Part shown: positions 4,563 through 49,922 of the stretch, in pieces
Position numbering within the stretch: position 1 is the first letter of the stretch
Layout of the letters: each line of letters opens with the position of its first letter
Origin: Dictyostelium discoideum
Lineage: Eukaryota
NCBI GenBank assembly: GCA_000004695.1
Contig: CM000154.2
Location: 384,001 to 448,000 of the forward strand
Direction: 5' to 3'
Length of the DNA: 64,000 nt
Translations under genes and position numbers: made by a program
Notes under the pieces: generated by a model
The model's database searches: none
Seen by the model: only the letters and a program-made list of their open reading frames with translations
Told to the model about the DNA's origin: nothing

Positions 4563-7500
4563 TTAAATTCTACCATCTAATCTATCTTTCATCTTTTTAT
4601 AAGATTTATGTTCTTGTTGTTCAGATTGAAGTTCAGACATGATTTGTTTTCTCTTCTTTTCATTTTCTTTTCTTTCTTCAGTTGCTTTTTTGAATTTCTC
4701 AGCTTGAATGAATTGATTATCTTTAACGATTTCTCTTAAGGCACCTTTAGTTTCTTTTTTAATTAAAGCCTTCATTTTGGCAGTATGATTTCTTTCAGCA
4801 TCAGGATCTTTGTTAAAGAAAGAGAATACTTGATTGAAACGTGGATTGAATTGACGTAATGTTTGAGGTTTACTTGTTAATAGAATCAATGGTTTTCTCT
4901 TATTGATAATTTCTTTATTAATTGAATCAATCAATTGTTTTAAAGAATTTATTTTTTCAATCAATTTCAAATTCATTGTATTTGTATCTAATTTATTTAA
5001 TAAATTTAAAATATTTGTAAATAAACTTGGCAATGATTCATTAAATTGTGATTCTGAATAAAATCTAATATATTTTTCAAGGAACGAAATTAAATAATTT
5101 AAAATATTAATTCTTAATTCATCATTAATTTCTAAATTTGATTTTGATAAATTTGAAAATTCCAATTGAGTTGGTTCAATCTTTTTAATAACATTAATTT
5201 GATTTGAAAGTTTTAAATAATTTAATGGTAATAAAATTGTTGGTATTAAAATATTTGTTGAAATTGATGCCCATTGTGAATTAATATTTGATGGGGTAGT
5301 GGTAGTAGTGGCAGTAGTGGTTTTTGAATTTTTTGAATTTTTTGGTTTAGTAGTGGTGGTGGTAGTAGTTTGAATTGTTGGTGGATTATGATTTATAAAA
5401 GTTGATAATAAACTAATTAAAAGTGATGAAATTTCTGGTGAATATCTTTTTGAAGGTGATAAATAAAAGAATAATAAATTCATAGTGAAAAGTGAAGAGA
5501 TGATATCATTAGCATTTCTAATTGGACAATGGGAGAGGAAGAAATTCAATGCTTCAATTGTTGGTGTTACAACTGGATGTTGGAAATCAGAAGTTGGGAA
5601 AACATTACCAATCAATTTAATAACTAATAACTCTTGTTGATTTGGCCAATAATTTAATTTACTTTGAATTTCCAATTTCTTACAAATACGTTTATAACAT
5701 GAATTAATTAAATCCTTTGATGTTATACCAGATACAATTGGTACATCTTGAGAAATTTCAAAAATATATTTCGATAAAACATCCAATTCAATCCAATCAA
5801 TAGGATTTGATGATTCATCTTGGTCATCCTCTTTAATTGGTTTTGCAATATTAATGAATCTTTGATATAAAATTGGTAAATAATCTTTCATTTTATCCTT
5901 ATTTTGTGGTTTAATTGAAACATGATTACAAACCCCAATACGTGTTAAAATGGTTTCTTTCTCTTCTGATGTTCTATTTAATAACCATTCATCTAATTCT
6001 TCAATTGATTTTGGTGTATCAAAGGTAAATGGAATTGTTTCATTAACTTCTTCTTTTGATTTTTTATTTGTTTTTAATTTTTTAGTTGATTTTTCTTCTT
6101 CCTCCTCCTCGTCGTCTTCTTGACCTGATAAAATTTCATCATCTTTTAAATCTAAATCAGAATCCTCTTCATCACCTTCTTCACCTTCTTCATCTTCATC
6201 ACTTTTATCTTCATCATCAGTTTCTAATTCAGATGATTGTTCATTAGTTTGGTCATCTTCACTGTCAGAATTATCTTTATTATTATTATCATCGTCGGAA
6301 TCAATTTGTGGATTATAGAAAACTGTATCTACACCATTAATATTTAAAACTTCATTTTCATCATCTAATGAATCGGCTGTTAACATTTTTGGTTTATTAT
6401 CTTTTGCTTTTAATCTATCTAAAACTTTTCTTGGTAAATTTTTATCACTATCTTTAACATTATCATCAGCTTCCAATTCAACGTAATCACCACTTGCTCT
6501 CTCTAATCTTTCTTTTTCTTTTTGTTGTAATCTTTCCATCTCTTCTTTCATTTGTTCTTCTTTAGTTTTAGTTCTATCAGTTGCATGTGCCCTACTCTCA
6601 CCTTGTAATTCATATAATAATTCATCGAAATCGTCATGTGCTTCCTTTGGTTTTTTTGTTGAATCATTAGTTGAATTTGATGATGATGATGAAGCGAATT
6701 TTTGTTCATTTGATCTTTGTTCAGCTTGGAATTTTAAGAATGCATCATCTTGTAAATTATTATTATTGCTACTATTGCTATTATTACCATTTGTTAATAT
6801 TAATTCACCTCTAATTAAATTAAATTCTTCATCTAAATCTCTAGTTAATGCTTCTTTTTTTAATTTTTCTTTTGCTCTTTCAGCTTTACCAATCTTTGAT
6901 TTTTCAATAATTTCTTGATAAATCTCTTTCTTTGATTTATGTCTATCTTGTCTTTCACCATTACCATTACTATCATCATCACCACCACCAAATCTTTGTC
7001 TTTCACTTAAAAACTCTTTTCCAACTTCATCCAATTCATCATCTGATGCGACATAATCATCATTACCTTCAGATAATGACATTGAATTACTACCTAATGA
7101 ATTACCTAATGATTGACCCATATGTGTTAATTCTTCTTGATCATTATCATTTAAATTATATAAATTTTTATTTCTCTATTTTAAAATAAAAATAAAAATA
7201 AAAAAGAAATTTATTAGTAATAATATTTTTTTCTTATATATATATATTAAATAAATAAATATTTACCAATTTTTCTCTTTGAAAACGTGCTAACATTTTA
7301 TCTTCTTCAGACATTGAAGCATCATTTTCACCAATACGAGCATCAATGAATTTATTTGATTTATTCATTTGATTCATTTCAACTAAAATTGTTTTTTTAC
7401 GTTTTTCAATTGCATTATATCTTGATTGACCTAAATCACCTGATGCACCTTTAACTTGTCTATTTAAAACTACATGTTTTGTTTTATTAACCTTTCTATC

Positions 7501-7608
7501 GAATGGATTGACAATCTTTACAACTGGTGTACTTTTTTCAATCTTATTAAATCCATTTGAAATACCACCTTTTTTGGAATTCACTGATTCTGATTTTGAT
7601 TTCACCAT
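4563..7608 (-). CDS. nop14: Nucleolar protein Nop14 (SSU processome). Two exons: complement(join(4563..7175,7267..7608)), about 984 aa.
   Basis: Exon 1 NPFDRKVNKTKHVVLNRQVKG...RYNAIEKRKKTILVEMNQMNKSNKFIDARIGENDASMSEEDKMLARFQREKL matches the Nop14 N-terminus. Donor GTAAAT (RC at 7261-7266), 91-bp intron, acceptor AG (RC at 7176-7177). Exon 2 continues RNKNLYNLNDNDQEELTHMGQSL... matching Nop14 IYNLNEDEELTHYGQSL. Long acidic/charged middle region and conserved C-terminal domain. Confidence 0.8.
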
Positions 7609-7870
7609 TATATTAAATATATATAATATTAAAAATAATAATAATAGTATTGTATAAAAAAAATAAAAAAATAAAAAAAAATTAATTGAAAAAAAAAAGA
7701 AAAAAAAACGAACGACGAAAAAAAAAAAAAAAAAAAAAAAAATTAAAAAAAAAAAAAAAACTTTTTTGGTAAAAAAAAAAAATCATTTTCCATTTTTTTA
7801 AGATTTTTATTTTTATTTTTACTTTCTAAAAATAATTTATTATTATTGTTATTATTATTATTAAAATAAA

Positions 7871-25583: not shown

Positions 25584-25654
25584 TGCGTATGCTGGGAATC
25601 GAACCCAGTTCGCATCCGTGGCAGGGATGCATCATACCACTAGACCACATACGC
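25584..25654 (-). tRNA. tRNA-Gly (anticodon GCC)
   Basis: Reverse complement GCGTATGTGGTCTAGTGGTATGATGCATCCCTGCCACGGATGCGAACTGGGTTCGATTCCCAGCATACGCA folds as a cloverleaf. 7-bp acceptor stem GCGTATG/CATACGC. Anticodon stem CATCC/GGATG with loop CTGCCAC (GCC). T-arm GGGTTCGATTCCC. Confidence 0.85.
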
Positions 25655-25694
25655 TTTTTGGTGAATATTTTTCTAAATAATAGCTTTTTATATG

Positions 25695-25935
25695 GTAAAA
25701 TATCTCTTAAAGCTTCTCCAAAGATCCACAACTCCCCCTGCATCTGGTGTAACGAATAGGAAACCTCAGAACATATCTTCTTTAAATGCAAACCACACAC
25801 TAAAGAAACTCAAGAGTGCATCAACTTCATTCAAGAAAAATCTGGAGGATCCAGAATCAATTGGGGAATAGAAATCTTCAACAGACCAGACATTCCATTA
25901 ACAGCCAACGTTATTCCATTCAAAAAAAAAATTTA
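25695..25935 (+). mobile_element. Candidate tRNA-gene-targeted non-LTR retroelement fragment (TRE5-like), head-to-head with tRNA-Gly, ending in oligo(A)
   Basis: A roughly 240-bp block of much higher GC content than its surroundings begins about 45 bp upstream of the tRNA-Gly 5' end, the characteristic TRE5 insertion distance (established knowledge). It contains a stop-terminated ORF tail ...HIFFKCKPHTKETQECINFIQEKSGGSRINWGIEIFNRPDIPLTANVIPFKKKI* with Cys/His spacing reminiscent of the C-terminal domain of non-LTR ORF2. It ends ...ccattcAAAAAAAAAA (25923-25932). Confidence 0.3.
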
Positions 25936-29119: not shown

Positions 29120-29120
29120 N
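29046..29120. repeat. (A)73 homopolymer containing one N, in the convergent 3' intergenic region between cdo and the alpha-mannosidase gene
   Basis: A run from 29047 to 29119 with an n at 29120. Directly observed. Confidence 0.9.
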
Positions 29121-41132: not shown

Positions 41133-41311
41133 ATGCCCAAAATTACCATATTAATTTCGGCAGCCATATTAATTTCAGCCTAAAATAGTTGGTCTGTGCA
41201 TGCCAAAATTAATATGGCTGCTGAAATTAATGTGGTAATTCTAGCAGACATAAGTCCCATGCCAAAATTACCATATTAATTTCAGCAGCCATATTAATTT
41301 TGGCATGGGAC
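41133..41311. repeat. MITE-like composite inverted/direct repeat element, about 180 bp (thug-S-like candidate)
   Basis: R1 cccaaaattaccatattaatttcggcagccatattaatttcagc (41138-41179). R2 gccaaaattaatatggctgctgaaattaatgtggtaattc (41201-41240) is the near-perfect reverse complement of R1. R3 gccaaaattaccatattaatttcagcagccatattaattttggc (41264-41305) is a direct copy of R1 whose own ends are palindromic (gccaaaatta/taattttggc). Outer ends atgcccaaaatt...aattttggcatgggac form short terminal inverted repeats. GC content well above the flanking poly-A/T DNA. Confidence 0.35.
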
Positions 41312-45536: not shown

Positions 45537-45636
45537 NNNNNNNNNNNNNNNNNNNNNNNNNNNNNNNNNNNNNNNNNNNNNNNNNNNNNNNNNNNNNNNN
45601 NNNNNNNNNNNNNNNNNNNNNNNNNNNNNNNNNNNN
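45537..45636. other. Assembly gap (100 N)
   Basis: Run of n characters 45537-45636, about 215 bp upstream of the UBIAD1 start codon. Confidence 1.
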
Positions 45637-46866: not shown

Positions 46867-48033
46867 CCCACACACCAATTCAAATAATTTTCCGTTAAAA
46901 GATATATTTAATAACCCTTCAATCACACTTCTTTTTTTTTTTAGCATTTTAAATTTAAAAAAAAAAAATCCTTCATTCATGAATAAAATGTAAATATGAT
47001 CGATTTCCAAAACATCTTCAAAAAATAAAAATAAAAATTATAAAAAAGAATAAAAATTATTAATTAAATAAAAATTAAAAAGAAGAAAAAAAAAAAGAAA
47101 TTAAAATAAAATAAAATTAAAAAAAATTAAAAAAAAAAAACAAATAAATAAAAATTTTTTATCATTTATTTTTATTTCTTTGAAATTTATTTTTATTTAA
47201 TAATTAATAAAAAAAAAAATTAAAAAAAAAATAAATAAATAAATAAAAATAAAAAAAAAAAAAAAAAAAAGTGTTTATAGTATTTCTTTTCTTTCTTTTT
47301 TTTTATTAAATTATGAATTGATTACAAATAAATTTTTATTAAATAATTTAAAGCATCATATTAATTGCTCTTTGTGGTTTTTGTCCAAAGTTTTTTTTTT
47401 TTAACACATCAAAAATAAAAAAAAATATTCATTGAATAGCCAATAAAAGGATATAAAATGTTAATTTTCAAAATATTTGGTTGATTATATAAACAAAAAA
47501 AAAAATGTATTCATACTGGTACTTTTTTCTATTTTTTTCACCTTTTTGAGCATGGCAATTTACAAAATCTAATATTAGAACGGTAATTGTTTTTTTAAAA
47601 AAAAAAAAAATAAAAAAAAAAGTTTTATTTGAAATGGGGTTATTTTTGTGATCAAAAAGGTATTCTCAAAATTTTGATTTTATTTTATTTTATTTTATTA
47701 TTTATTTTTTTTAAATTTTTTTTTTTTTTTTTTAAAATTTTATTATTTAGAATTAAAATGTTGTTTTTTCCAGAGCAATATTTTTTTTATTTTTTAATTT
47801 GAATTATCAAAATTTAATAAAGAATTTTAATTTTAAATAGTGCAGTTATTGTTATTTTTTTTTGTTTTAAAAAAATAAAATTAATAAATCTAATAATAAA
47901 ATTGTATAAATTAAATGGTTGAAGGAGGTTATCTTTAGAAGAACTGATTCTGAAGTACAATTCTAGTGTTTCTTACAATTAAAGAAGAGATAACCTCAGG
48001 ATCATTAAAATTCTAGTTTATAAATCCTTTTAG

Positions 48034-48051
48034 GACAGGAGTCGAACCTGT
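48034..48051 (-). promoter_or_regulatory. External B-box (ex-B) 27 nt downstream of tRNA-Leu
   Basis: Minus strand reads ACAGGTTCGACTCCTGTC, a near-consensus B-box (GGTTCGANTCC) with flanking inverted bases, immediately 3' of the tRNA. This is the typical Dictyostelium ex-B arrangement. Confidence 0.5.
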
Positions 48052-48077
48052 AGTCTTTGGTGGCTCAAATAAATTAT

Positions 48078-48159
48078 TGTAAGCTAAGGGATTCGAACCC
48101 TTGTATCAATGATATTGCAGCCTTAATGCAACCCCTTAGACCAGCTCGGGCAAGCTTAC
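48078..48159 (-). tRNA. tRNA-Leu (anticodon AAG), class II with long variable arm
   Basis: Reverse complement GTAAGCTTGCCCGAGCTGGTCTAAGGGGTTGCATTAAGGCTGCAATATCATTGATACAAGGGTTCGAATCCCTTAGCTTACA. Acceptor GTAAGCT/AGCTTAC. Anticodon stem TTGCA/TGCAA with loop TTAAGGC (AAG). 12-nt variable arm. T-arm AAGGGTTCGAATCCCTT. Confidence 0.85.
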
Positions 48160-48194
48160 TTTTTGAAAATTTTGTAATCTCTAACGATATTAAT

Positions 48195-48358
48195 TTATCA
48201 ATTACGGAAAAAAAACAAACAACAACAACAATCTCTTTTTTTGATTATTTCATTTTTCATATAAAAAAGACTTAAAAAACAAATAAATAAATAAATAAAC
48301 TATTTTAAAAAGCCATCTTTTTACTTTATTGTAATTTATTATTTGAAATAGAAAAAAT

Positions 48359-48409
<51 letters not shown>

Positions 48410-48701
48410 GGAACCCAAGTTAATCAGAAAATTTCCAGATTTTTAACTTTTTAAAGAAAAATAAAAAAAATAGAAAGAAAATAAAATGAAAATCACAAAC
48501 AACACCACAAATATTAAGCAACACAAATGCCTACAAAAAATAAGCGAAATTGTGGATAAAACTCAATTAAAAAAAAAACAATTCAAATACGTCATAAACA
48601 TCAATCACGAACCAGACGATAAAATAAAAAAAGATTTAGAAAAAAGTTTGGACAAAAAAGATGTTTTAATCAAAAGTAATAATACAATTCAAAATTCGAA
48701 A

Positions 48702-48743
<42 letters not shown>

Positions 48744-49130
48744 TAAACCAACCCCTCTTTTAGAGACCCTGTAAAAAAAAATAAAATAAAATAAAATGAG
48801 ATCTAGCATCTCAAGGAGAAGCAAATAATAATTGCGTTATCCAATTCAAAAAAAAAATAATTTATCAATTACTATGACCCTGTAAAAAAAAAATTATTAT
48901 TATTTATCCCTGTAAAAAAAAAAAAAATAAAATGAGATCTAGCATCTCAAGGAGAAGCAAATAATAATTGCGTTATCCAATTCAAAAAAAAAAAATTTAT
49001 CAATTACTAAAAAAACAACAACAACAATCTCTTTTTTTGATTATTTCATTTTTCATAAAAAAGACTTAAAAAACAAATAAATAAACTATTTTAAAAAGCC
49101 ATCTTTTTACTTATTGTAATCTATTATTTG
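48195..49130. repeat. Composite direct-repeat structure beginning about 35 bp upstream of tRNA-Leu. Unit A (48195-48345), then about 420 bp of unique sequence including a K-rich small ORF (48486-48746), then about 135-bp unit B twice in tandem (48762-48872 and 48910-49008), then A' (48997-49130), about 90% identical to A. Possible tRNA-targeted element remnant or local duplication.
   Basis: A: ttatcaattacggaaaaaaaacaaacaacaacaacaatctctttttttgattatttcatttttcatataaaaaagacttaaaaaacaaataaataaa...ctattttaaaaagccatctttttactttattgtaatttattatttg. A' is the same with small indels. B/B': ccctgtaaaaaaa...ataaaatgagatctagcatctcaaggagaagcaaataataattgcgttatccaattcaaaaaaaa..tttatcaattac. The 12-mer tttatcaattac marks each junction (48190, 48861, 48996). 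Confidence 0.5.
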
Positions 49131-49922
49131 TTTCGTTTTGAAAATTTTGCCTCGCACAATCTGTCATCTTAAATTTTAATCTAATGCAATTTATATTTAT
49201 ATTTTAATTTATCTTTTATATTTACATTTCAATTTTAATCTTTTTATTTAAATACACTTTTTTTTAATAAAAATTTTTTATTTGGAAATGTCAATTTAAA
49301 TAAACAAAAAAAAATTAATTTTCCAATTTTTAATTTCCAAAAATACAAATAACAAAATGTTAAATATAGTACAACTTTCAATCAATTAAAGGTTTATCCA
49401 TTTATATTTATTAATAAAAAAAAAAAAAAATTTTGTAATTTTAAAATAGTTTCATTTTCATGGACTTTTTTTTTTTTTTTATGTTCACAGACTATTAATT
49501 AAAATAAAAAAGTAAATTTATTCTTTTTTATTTTTTTTAAATTTATTTAATTTTTATTTTTATTTTATTTTTATTTGAATTGTTGAGTAACCAGGGTTAC
49601 CCCTTATTTGAAAAAAAAAAAATAAAATAAAAAAAATGAATTTTTTTATTTATTTAATTTATTTTTTTTCTTATTAAATTATCATTTTTCTCCCAATTTA
49701 GTAAAAAAAAAAAAAATTAAATAAAAAAAAAAAAATTAAATAAAAAAAAAAAAAATTAAATAAAAAAAAAAAAAAAAAAAATAAATAAAAAAAAAATCAA
49801 ATTAAAATTTTTTTATCTCCATTAATTTTATTCATTATTAATATTTTTCTTATCTTTTATTAAAAAACAAATAGAAAAAAAAAAAAAAAAAAAAAAAGTT
49901 TTTAAAGAAAAAAAATAAAAAA

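Follow-up and report, generated by a model that had tools for sequence, protein, structure and literature searches.

Three stacked insertions of the non-LTR retrotransposon TRE5-A (formerly DRE) are very probably the explanation for the repeats upstream of the tRNA gene LeuAAG-7 of Dictyostelium discoideum. The window, i.e., the whole 64-kb stretch of DNA analyzed here, corresponds to positions 384001 to 448000 of chromosome 5 of D. discoideum AX4 and has a GC content of 21%. A tRNA-Leu(AAG) gene was identified with ARAGORN and Rfam (50.8 bits) on the minus strand at 48078 to 48159 and served as the landmark for integration. Its chromosomal position, 432078 to 432159, is that of LeuAAG-7 in Table S2 of PMC5391098 once 384000 is added to the window coordinates; with the same shift, the coordinates of a tRNA-Gly in the window are those of GlyGCC-13. 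For LeuAAG-7, Table S2 lists 12/0/945 mapped de novo TRE5-Absr integrations, and on this literature evidence the gene is an experimentally confirmed TRE5-A target (PMC5391098). The locus is an ordinary example of a kind of feature that has already been described and is already known. The window also contained an Rfam match to mir-7131, a Dictyostelium family, and a search with the non-repetitive part of a neighboring 1350-aa protein yielded two paralogues only.

All features named in an initial annotation of this stretch were found, with small shifts in coordinates only. An assembly artefact was ruled out because the structure recurs in GCA_054883475.1, a second D. discoideum assembly that matched the whole arrangement base for base; it differed by one single-nucleotide polymorphism at 47633, which lies outside the feature, and in the length of both long poly(A) runs described below.

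The copy nearest to the tRNA gene, E1 (48206 to 48860, plus strand), is a TRE5-A element with A-, B- and C-modules that lacks the ORFs. Its 5′ end points toward the tRNA gene and its A-tail lies at the far end, so that the modules run from A through B to C away from the minus-strand tRNA gene (head to head). The first base of E1, 48206, is at −47 relative to the tRNA 5′ end at 48159, and one extra G is present at its 5′ end. The A-module, which represents the 5′ UTR and promoter of TRE5-A and was called unit A in the initial annotation, covers 48206 to 48359 and was recognized by alignment and by blastn against loci L004 and L002; the 137 bp from 48209 to 48345 matched the consensus A-module, as represented by L002 and by nine 199-bp A-modules arranged in tandem in L004, with 100% identity. 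The remaining bases, 48346 to 48359, form an atypical junction, AAATAGAAAAAATC, as the A-module continues to position 139 and then passes into this sequence, unlike in the other copies examined. An A46 run at 48360 to 48405 follows at the junction of the A- and B-modules; it is 8 bases shorter in the second assembly, and such a run occupies the same junction in L004 (6170 to 6210), L002 (7885 to 7920) and L005. The B-module (48406 to 48702), recognized by homology to L003, contains the ORF1 start codon at 48486, and an A39 run (48703 to 48741) marks its junction with the C-module, as in L002, L003 and L005. The C-module with its tail, the first copy of what had been termed unit B, extends from 48742 to 48860 and could be aligned with the same three loci; the module proper (48742 to 48847) ends with CCAATTC and is followed by A10 and TAA. 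Specific to E1 are the junctions ...TATTATTTGAAATAGAAAAAATC(A)n CCTGGGAACCC and the join of B to C without intervening ORFs.

The B-module with the first 68 codons of ORF1 corresponds to the approximately 300 bp that separate the two long poly(A) runs. A tblastn search with ORF1 located residues 3 to 68 at 48492 to 48689 with 98.5% identity, and the peptide encoded by the B-module has paralogues annotated as "hypothetical proteins" on several D. discoideum chromosomes. No match to ORF2 was obtained at the locus by tblastn, and the match to ORF1 was limited to codons 3 to 68. The copies at this locus are therefore non-autonomous or dead, and the intact ORF1 and ORF2 of autonomous TRE5-A.1, with its APE-RT-zinc finger organization, are not found here. 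We rejected the idea that the long internal poly(A) runs are the tails of nested retro-copies, because such runs are located at both module junctions, A/B and B/C, in all TRE5-A copies examined; the A46 and A39 runs are the canonical internal poly(A) of TRE5-A and not retro-tails.

E1 is flanked by identical 12-bp sequences which we interpret as target-site duplications (TSDs). The sequence TTTATCAATTAC occurs in exactly three copies, at 48194 to 48205 (−35 to −46 from the tRNA gene), 48861 to 48872 and 48996 to 49007, all on the plus strand and all exact matches. None was found elsewhere in the 64 kb, for which about 0.1 exact matches by chance were estimated from the base composition of the window. 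The TSD length of 12 bp can be extended to 14 to 15 bp: the 15-bp version of the first copy is TAATTTATCAATTAC (48191 to 48205), and copies 2 and 3 also have the following TA in common. That TTTATCAATTAC marks all the junctions had been noted before and is correct, but it is host target DNA duplicated anew with every insertion and not part of a terminal repeat.

Between the second and third TSD copies lies E2 (48873 to 48995, plus strand), a 5′-truncated TRE5-A consisting of the C-module only, as determined by alignment and blastn. It begins at GACCCTGTA, has an internal CCCTGTA(A)n duplication, ends with CCAATTC and A12, and is 98.8 to 100% identical to the C-modules of L003 and L002. The tandem unit B of the initial annotation thus proved real as regards its two copies (48776 to 48874 and 48914 to 49009, repeating every ~136 bp with 97% identity), but these are the 3′ ends of two TRE5-A elements. 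Each of the C copies in E1 and E2 is predicted to fold into two hairpins (−11.3 kcal/mol), and a stem-loop in the last ~54 nucleotides of the C-module is needed for TRE5-A retrotransposition.

The third copy, E3 (49008 to 49160, plus strand), was identified by blastn and alignment as an older A-module remnant. It was named A′ previously and aligned to positions 5 to 168 of the consensus A-module with 90% identity; unit A (48212 to 48345) and A′ (49009 to 49130) are 90.3% identical over 134 columns (E = 1e-42). E3 lacks the 3′ part of the element and a distal TSD: no fourth copy of TTTATCAATTAC was present within 900 bp. A blastn of 49120 to 49560 without low-complexity filter returned AT-rich noise only and gave no assignment for 49161 to 49248. 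Since target-primed reverse transcription cannot make 3′-truncated copies, an unobserved deletion must be assumed for E3, whose 3′ part was probably lost later in this way. This speaks against the proposed stack, as do the deviating A/B junction of E1 and the failure to recover an exact empty site (see below).

The assignment to TRE5-A was supported by comparison with other copies in about 270 kb of fetched loci, to which the A-, B- and C-modules of the locus were 94 to 100% identical. Published TRE5-A elements have the structure AB-ORF1/ORF2-BC, with an A-module of 200 bp, a B-module of 290 bp and a C-module of 134 to 137 bp, and their 5′ end faces the tRNA gene (PMC3159450). In L003, ORF1 (444 aa) and ORF2 (1047 aa, RVT_1) lie between TRE5-A modules, and a B-module is also present 3′ of ORF2, where it is joined straight to the C-module. 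The B-module of E1 was 98.8% identical over 334 bp to the one located 5′ of ORF1 in L003, and its B-C block was 93.6% identical over 503 bp to the B-C block after ORF2. The overall arrangement in L003 is ORF2-B-ORF1-ORF2-B-C, and the ORF2-B-ORF1 fusion is the reciprocal duplication product of a recombination between B-modules. Integration of TRE5-A occurs primarily at −47 ± 3, non-templated 5′ nucleotides are common, and tandem copies are present at 91 of the 98 occupied tRNA genes (PMC5391098); TSDs of 10 to 16 bp and insertion "above" an existing TRE5-A have been observed (PMC9012585). At LeuAAG-7 we found the homologous modules, a site within −47 ± 3, the 5′ end toward the tRNA gene, A-tails and a TSD within 10 to 16 bp. 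The same stacked pattern was seen at a tRNA-Ser gene in L002, where GCTGTCATCGATGAC is the TSD on either side of the proximal element and directly adjoins an older one.

These results bear out the initial annotation in its suggestion that mobile DNA had been inserted at a tRNA-targeted position. The local segmental duplication considered alongside it would have been favored by units A and B being unique to this locus; since both units and the intervening sequence exist in multiple genomic copies, the block is not such a duplication. A and A′ had also been likened to the terminal repeats of one element. A single composite element of this LTR-like type, inserted once near the tRNA gene, would account for direct repeats about 800 bp apart that are each preceded by the same 12-mer, and the LTR retrotransposon DGLT-A, whose solo LTRs are known as "H3R", does target sites upstream of Dictyostelium tRNA genes (PMC5006619). 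We nevertheless regard this possibility as extremely unlikely. Two LTRs left by one insertion should be each other's closest match, but the identity to dispersed consensus copies is 100% for A and only 90% for A′; A-modules of full elements are confined to the 5′ end and to tandem arrays, as in L004; the interior consists of TRE5-A B- and C-modules with A-tails, which is that of a non-LTR element and not of DGLT-A or H3R; and terminal repeats leave the 12-mer between the two C-modules unexplained. Among the fetched loci, no other A...A′ architecture with different TSDs was seen. A and A′ are instead the 5′ A-modules of two TRE5-A insertions of different age.

The number of insertions could be smaller if only E3 and then E1 had inserted and E2 had arisen by tandem duplication or unequal crossing-over of a unit of ~135 bp. 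Independent insertion and tandem duplication predict an identical layout here: the unit would comprise the 3′ part of the C-module, tail, TSD and TA, its copies share 97% identity over 99 bp and recur every ~136 bp, TTTATCAATTACTA follows both of them, and short repeats in the region could mediate slippage. The two copies differ, however, at precisely the positions where independent source elements do, with (AAAAT)3 in one and a plain A-run in the other before TAAAATGAG, and with tails of A10TAA and A12, both variants being found in other genomic copies. Moreover, 5′-truncated, TSD-flanked copies are typical TRE5-A products (PMC3159450) and re-insertion at occupied tRNA genes is frequent (PMC5391098). 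We therefore consider an origin of E2 by duplication unlikely and favor three separate insertions.

TRE5-A locates tRNA genes via the pol III factors TFIIIC and TFIIIB and inserts by target-primed reverse transcription at about −47, where staggered nicks give rise to a TSD of 10 to 16 bp. Because the insertion site is measured from the tRNA gene, each new copy would enter the TSD on the tRNA-proximal side of its predecessor and re-duplicate the same bases. The order tRNA - 34 bp - TSD - E1 - TSD - E2 - TSD - E3 would result, with the youngest element nearest to the tRNA gene. E1 is most simply explained by a deletion in which the 5′ and 3′ B-modules of a complete element recombined, and this deletion may have taken place either in situ or in a source copy that was later mobilized in trans. 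That ORF-less A-B-C elements form a distinct non-autonomous, SINE-like lineage mobilized in trans, and are not one-off deletions, appears doubtful to us, although E1 is flanked by a TSD and a separate A-A-B-C element, bounded by the perfect 13-bp TSD TAATGAAACCTTT, is located ~50 bp upstream of a tRNA-Phe gene in D. cf. discoideum (L005). If such a lineage existed, the exact threefold use of one 12-bp target would moreover indicate that nicking by TRE5-A at a natural locus is reproducible to the single nucleotide. No mention of a "TRE5-A.3" was found in the literature searched.

Nine orthologous loci were obtained with a spliced Trx-like protein as query, and the tRNA-Leu(AAG) sequence was 100% identical in eight orthologous loci. 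The comparison of presence and absence proposed in the initial annotation showed that related genomes lack the block at the orthologous site: TRE5-A modules were absent at the orthologous tRNA-Leu of six Dictyostelium assemblies (L006, L007, L008, L011, L012 and L014). An A-module-like relic, 73 to 75% identical to every A-module tested, was located ~50 bp upstream of the tRNA-Leu gene in L006 (D. cf. discoideum), and C-module-like remnants were seen at the orthologous site in L010/L011. A nucleotide-exact empty site was not recovered among the closest relatives compared, because these are too diverged next to the tRNA gene; their first ~100 bp upstream of it could not be aligned to AX4.

Downstream of the tRNA gene, at 48048 to 48038 on the minus strand (+30 to +40), the sequence reads GGTTCGACTCC, which fits the external B box consensus GTTCRAnYC (PMC3159450) and sits inside a T-arm-like ACAGG/CCTGT stem. 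The motif reported in the initial annotation is genuine, but its distance from the tRNA 3′ end is 29 nucleotides and not 27. A B-box-like motif was present at the same position in all 8 orthologous assemblies, most of them exact to the consensus within diverged flanks, with degenerate variants in L008 and L010. External B boxes accompany 66% of D. discoideum tRNA genes (PMC3159450). As far as can be read from its bases, GGTTCGACTCC belongs to the external, TFIIIC-type B boxes already known from Dictyostelium tRNA genes; it is the same in kind as those described, which have a typical distance of about 41 bp compared to +30 here (PMC3159450), and the extra-TFIIIC sites of yeast provide a comparison system.

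Further downstream, from +80 to +154 and outside the retrotransposon stack, lies an imperfect palindrome of 75 bp (47924 to 47998). Its perfect 10-bp arms, GAGGTTATCT, at 47925 to 47934 and 47988 to 47997 extend imperfectly to 47924 to 47936 and 47986 to 47998. The palindrome is present as previously noted, but it is weakly supported and not conserved, and nothing supports it as a functional element. A function as a small structured RNA, as a terminator hairpin for pol III read-through or as a protein-binding site belonging to the tRNA/external B box unit could be envisaged from the perfect, GC-containing arms, of which ~1.2 such loci per 64 kb are expected in local shuffles, from the fold z-score of −2.3 on the minus strand, and from the location within the zone ~100 bp downstream of tRNA genes that is targeted by TRE3 and Skipper-2 (PMC5006619). 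We consider such a function very unlikely, as the z-score on the plus strand reaches only −1.2 and the window holds four more inverted-repeat loci of a comparable kind (~5 in total, including this one). Rfam returned nothing for the palindrome at E ≤ 1, and neither the window nor the fetched loci contained another copy of it. In L006, L007 and L009, orthologous sequence exists, yet the arms are not complementary and there are no compensatory changes. The palindrome is most likely incidental and probably not functional.

From the layered TSDs, the insertions at LeuAAG-7 can be ranked by relative age, and the ORF-less A-B-C form of E1, together with the ORF2-B-ORF1 fusion in L003, illustrates recombination via the duplicated B-module. 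Stacked hits that re-duplicate their target may pass for terminal repeats or for a segmental duplication. The locus is a textbook case of how TRE5-A spares the genes of a compact genome by seeking out the transcription complexes of pol III; beyond annotation it is of little importance.

With tandem TRE5-A copies at other occupied tRNA genes, the stack shares the −47 site, the orientation, the oligo(A) tail, the TSD, the extra 5′ nucleotide and the 5′ truncation. It differs from the usual TRE5-A in that E3 is a 3′-truncated A-module remnant and that each of the three events duplicated one and the same 12-bp sequence. The variants described so far are TRE5-A.1 (AB-ORF1/ORF2-BC) and TRE5-A.2 (AB-ORF1-BC), whereas E1 consists of A-B-C only. 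Both E1 and TRE5-A.2, which is non-autonomous and mobilized in trans, are internally deleted and keep the A promoter module and the 3′ end with the C-module, which retrotransposition requires; TRE5-A.2, however, still has ORF1, and 72 bp are deleted from its B-C region (PMC3159450), whereas E1 has 68 ORF1 codons and a complete B-C junction. In a published assay, TRE5-A elements without ORF1 retrotransposed about 200-fold less (PMC3159450). Ty3 of Saccharomyces cerevisiae and DGLT-A of Dictyostelium likewise target a region upstream of tRNA genes that is marked by TFIIIB/TFIIIC, and they leave solo repeats where one gene is hit repeatedly; these elements have LTRs, an integrase and short TSDs, whereas the element at LeuAAG-7 is of the non-LTR type, with A-tails and TSDs of 12 to 15 bp.

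ARAGORN identified two tRNA genes in the window (G+C content 21%), at 25584-25654 and 48078-48159. Because both positions, when 384000 is added, equal exactly the entries GlyGCC-13 (chr5 409584-409654) and LeuAAG-7 (chr5 432078-432159) in Table S2 of PMC5391098, the window corresponds to 384001-448000 of AX4 reference chromosome 5 and the tRNA gene beside the repeats is LeuAAG-7. The proteins adjacent to the locus bear D. discoideum names. Upstream of GlyGCC-13 (minus strand) and head-to-head with it, a fragment at 25634-25918 (plus strand) showed 43% protein identity to residues 851-943 of TRE5-A ORF2; it is probably a 5′-truncated copy from another TRE5 family. Nested near-perfect palindromes with arms of up to ~20 bp at 41160-41302 contain an Rfam match to mir-7131 (41209-41297, both strands, about 94 bits), a Dictyostelium family. 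The reference gap of 100 N at 45537-45636 corresponds to ~390 bp in a second D. discoideum assembly, GCA_054883475.1 (L001 3002-3394), and one further N is present at 29120.

The initial annotation had described a unit A recurring as A′, a pair of unit B copies and TTTATCAATTAC junctions upstream of the tRNA gene, together with an external B box (ex-B box) and a palindrome downstream of it, and all of these were found. Units A (48212-48345) and A′ (49009-49130) share 90% identity (E = 1e-42), and the unit B copies (48776-48874 and 48914-49009, 136 bp apart) share 97%. Between two long A-runs lies an 86-codon ORF; it has five or six paralogues, spread over several D. discoideum chromosomes and listed as hypothetical proteins. 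In L003, one of the D. discoideum loci of these paralogues, the segment containing this ORF, the B-segment, is located directly upstream of a 444-aa ORF and continues into it; next comes an ORF of 1047 aa that encodes a reverse-transcriptase domain, after which the B-segment is repeated and fused directly to unit B. This arrangement matches the published architecture of the non-LTR retrotransposon TRE5-A, AB-ORF1/ORF2-BC, in which the A-module measures 200 bp, the B-module, which includes the ORF1 start, 290 bp and the 3′ C-module 134-137 bp (PMC3159450). Nine tandem 199-bp units that precede a B-module in a further locus, L004, match unit A at 100% identity over 137 bp, which makes unit A the TRE5-A A-module. 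The middle segment between the A-runs is the B-module, with ORF1 residues 3-68 mapping to 48492-48689 (tblastn), and unit B corresponds to the C-module. All TRE5-A copies examined have long A-runs where A meets B and where B meets C, which rules out that these runs are tails of nested copies; they belong to the element. The array in L004 (4511-6194) consists of nine essentially identical head-to-tail A-modules with a 199-bp period, with one B-module and then ORF1 behind it. Just upstream of the array lies a sequence resembling a tRNA, without an ARAGORN call.

At LeuAAG-7, a 34-bp spacer separates the tRNA from the first copy of the target-site duplication (TSD), TTTATCAATTAC, which occurs exactly three times in the whole window, at 48194-48205, 48861-48872 and 48996-49007. 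Each copy precedes one of three TRE5-A-derived units, E1 to E3, numbered outward from the tRNA. E1 (48206-48860) comprises A-, B- and C-modules in outward order; its 5′ end, at position -47, carries one extra G, and its 3′ end is CCAATTC followed by A10. E2 (48873-48995) contains only the 3′ ~110 bp of the C-module, with an internally duplicated CCCTGTA(A)n and an A12 tail at its end. E3 (49008-49160) is an old A-module remnant covering consensus positions 5-168 with 90% identity. The 15 bp TAATTTATCAATTAC are common to TSD copies 1 and 2, and the 14 bp TTTATCAATTACTA to copies 2 and 3. Module identity, position, orientation, tails and the repeated target sequence are hereby established. The locus thus carries inserted, tRNA-targeted mobile DNA, as initially proposed; A and A′, however, are not the terminal repeats of one element but the A-modules of E1 and of the older remnant E3. 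As the second assembly (L001, L013) has an identical structure, an assembly artefact is unlikely. The sole difference concerns the two internal A-runs of E1 (48360-48405 and 48703-48741), which have 46 and 39 bases in AX4 versus 38 and 30 in GCA_054883475.1, reflecting either homopolymer instability or sequencing uncertainty.

Insertion is probably positioned relative to the TFIIIB/TFIIIC complex that occupies the tRNA gene. A further round of target-primed reverse transcription would then nick inside the TSD copy nearest the tRNA and duplicate the same bases again, which would place the youngest copy closest to the tRNA. The divergence fits this order, with E1 being 99-100% identical to other copies versus 90% for E3. 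That E2 arose by local duplication of the C-tail-TSD unit seems improbable, as the differences between the two C copies fall at sites that also vary among independent genomic copies, favoring separate insertions. For E3, neither a 3′ part nor a distal TSD was found; because reverse transcription begins at the 3′ end, this would call for a later deletion of the 3′ part.

E1 lacks both ORFs, and the simplest origin of such a unit would be recombination between the duplicated B-modules. In the locus L003 (1-8360), TRE5-A units are fused as ORF2-B-ORF1-ORF2-B-C, without a C- or A-module between them. This arrangement, reciprocal to E1, is what unequal exchange between B-modules would be expected to leave, and it indicates that exchanges of this kind take place. 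The ORFs may have been deleted from E1 at LeuAAG-7 itself, or E1 may be a copy made in trans from an A-B-C source. Compatible with copying in trans is a second, independent instance of the ORF-less form in D. cf. discoideum, a complete A-A-B-C TRE5-A-like element ~50 bp upstream of tRNA-Phe (L005 3513-4130, minus strand) flanked by a perfect 13-bp TSD, TAATGAAACCTTT; speaking against it, ORF1-less constructs were ~200-fold less mobile in a published assay (PMC3159450).

Nine orthologous loci, including those of D. firmibasis and D. cf. discoideum, were obtained via the neighboring Trx-like protein, and in eight of them the tRNA-Leu gene is 100% identical. The orthologous intervals of L006, L007, L008, L011, L012 and L014 lack TRE5-A modules. 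In L007, homology to the window restarts at 49249, 65 bp upstream of the L007 tRNA; a base-exact empty site was not found among the orthologous loci, whose flanks are too diverged. C-module 3′-end remnants are present upstream of tRNA-Leu in L010 and L011, and a highly diverged A-module-like relic ~50 bp upstream of it in L006, so this gene has been struck repeatedly in different lineages. In L009 the tRNA-Leu gene is missing, and the interval contains a Ty3/gypsy-type LTR element with reverse transcriptase, RNase H and integrase (L009 1-6871). Downstream of the tRNA position (~7500-7800), L007 and L009 also have a long microsatellite of (ATT)n repeats that is absent from AX4.

The ex-B box, GGTTCGACTCC, is an already known feature and lies 29 nt past the tRNA. 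A B-box-like motif at ~+30 was present in all eight tRNA-bearing orthologous loci, degenerate in L008 and L010, although the flanks could not be aligned. Conservation of its position while the surroundings diverge argues for functional constraint and is suggestive of cross-species selection for the external B box. In AX4 the T-run just 3′ of the tRNA (48064-48077, minus strand) is interrupted (TTTATTT), and its orthologues are mostly T4-T7, with only T3 in L014. Since the next T4 in AX4 lies ~65 nt downstream, beyond the ex-B box, pol III read-through across the box is conceivable. In the palindrome, perfect 10-bp arms begin at 47925 and 47988, but complementary arms were not found in the orthologous sequence of L006, L007 and L009. 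Its fold z-scores were -1.2 and -2.3, and the number of comparable GC-containing inverted repeats in the window was about five versus 1.2 expected from local shuffles. It had no Rfam match and no further copy in the window or the compared loci. We regard it as an incidental lineage-specific sequence, weakly supported as a feature.

The upstream repeats are members of a family that has been described in depth, and their target gene in the reference genome is experimentally characterized; in this sense they are already known. [quoted passage not shown] TRE5-A readily inserts at already-occupied tRNA genes, forming tandems at 91 of 98 occupied genes, and de novo tagged insertions were recorded at LeuAAG-7 itself (PMC5391098); an insertion at a TRE5-A-occupied site was also documented by nanopore sequencing (PMC9012585). 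The D. discoideum locus L002 contains three tRNA-Ser(GCU) genes spaced ~4.5 kb apart. A layered pattern like that at LeuAAG-7 is found there, with a 5′-truncated TRE5-A at -48 of a tRNA-Ser(GCU) gene between copies of the 15-bp TSD GCTGTCATCGATGAC (L002 5654-5668 and 7602-7616), the distal of which adjoins the A-module of an older element.
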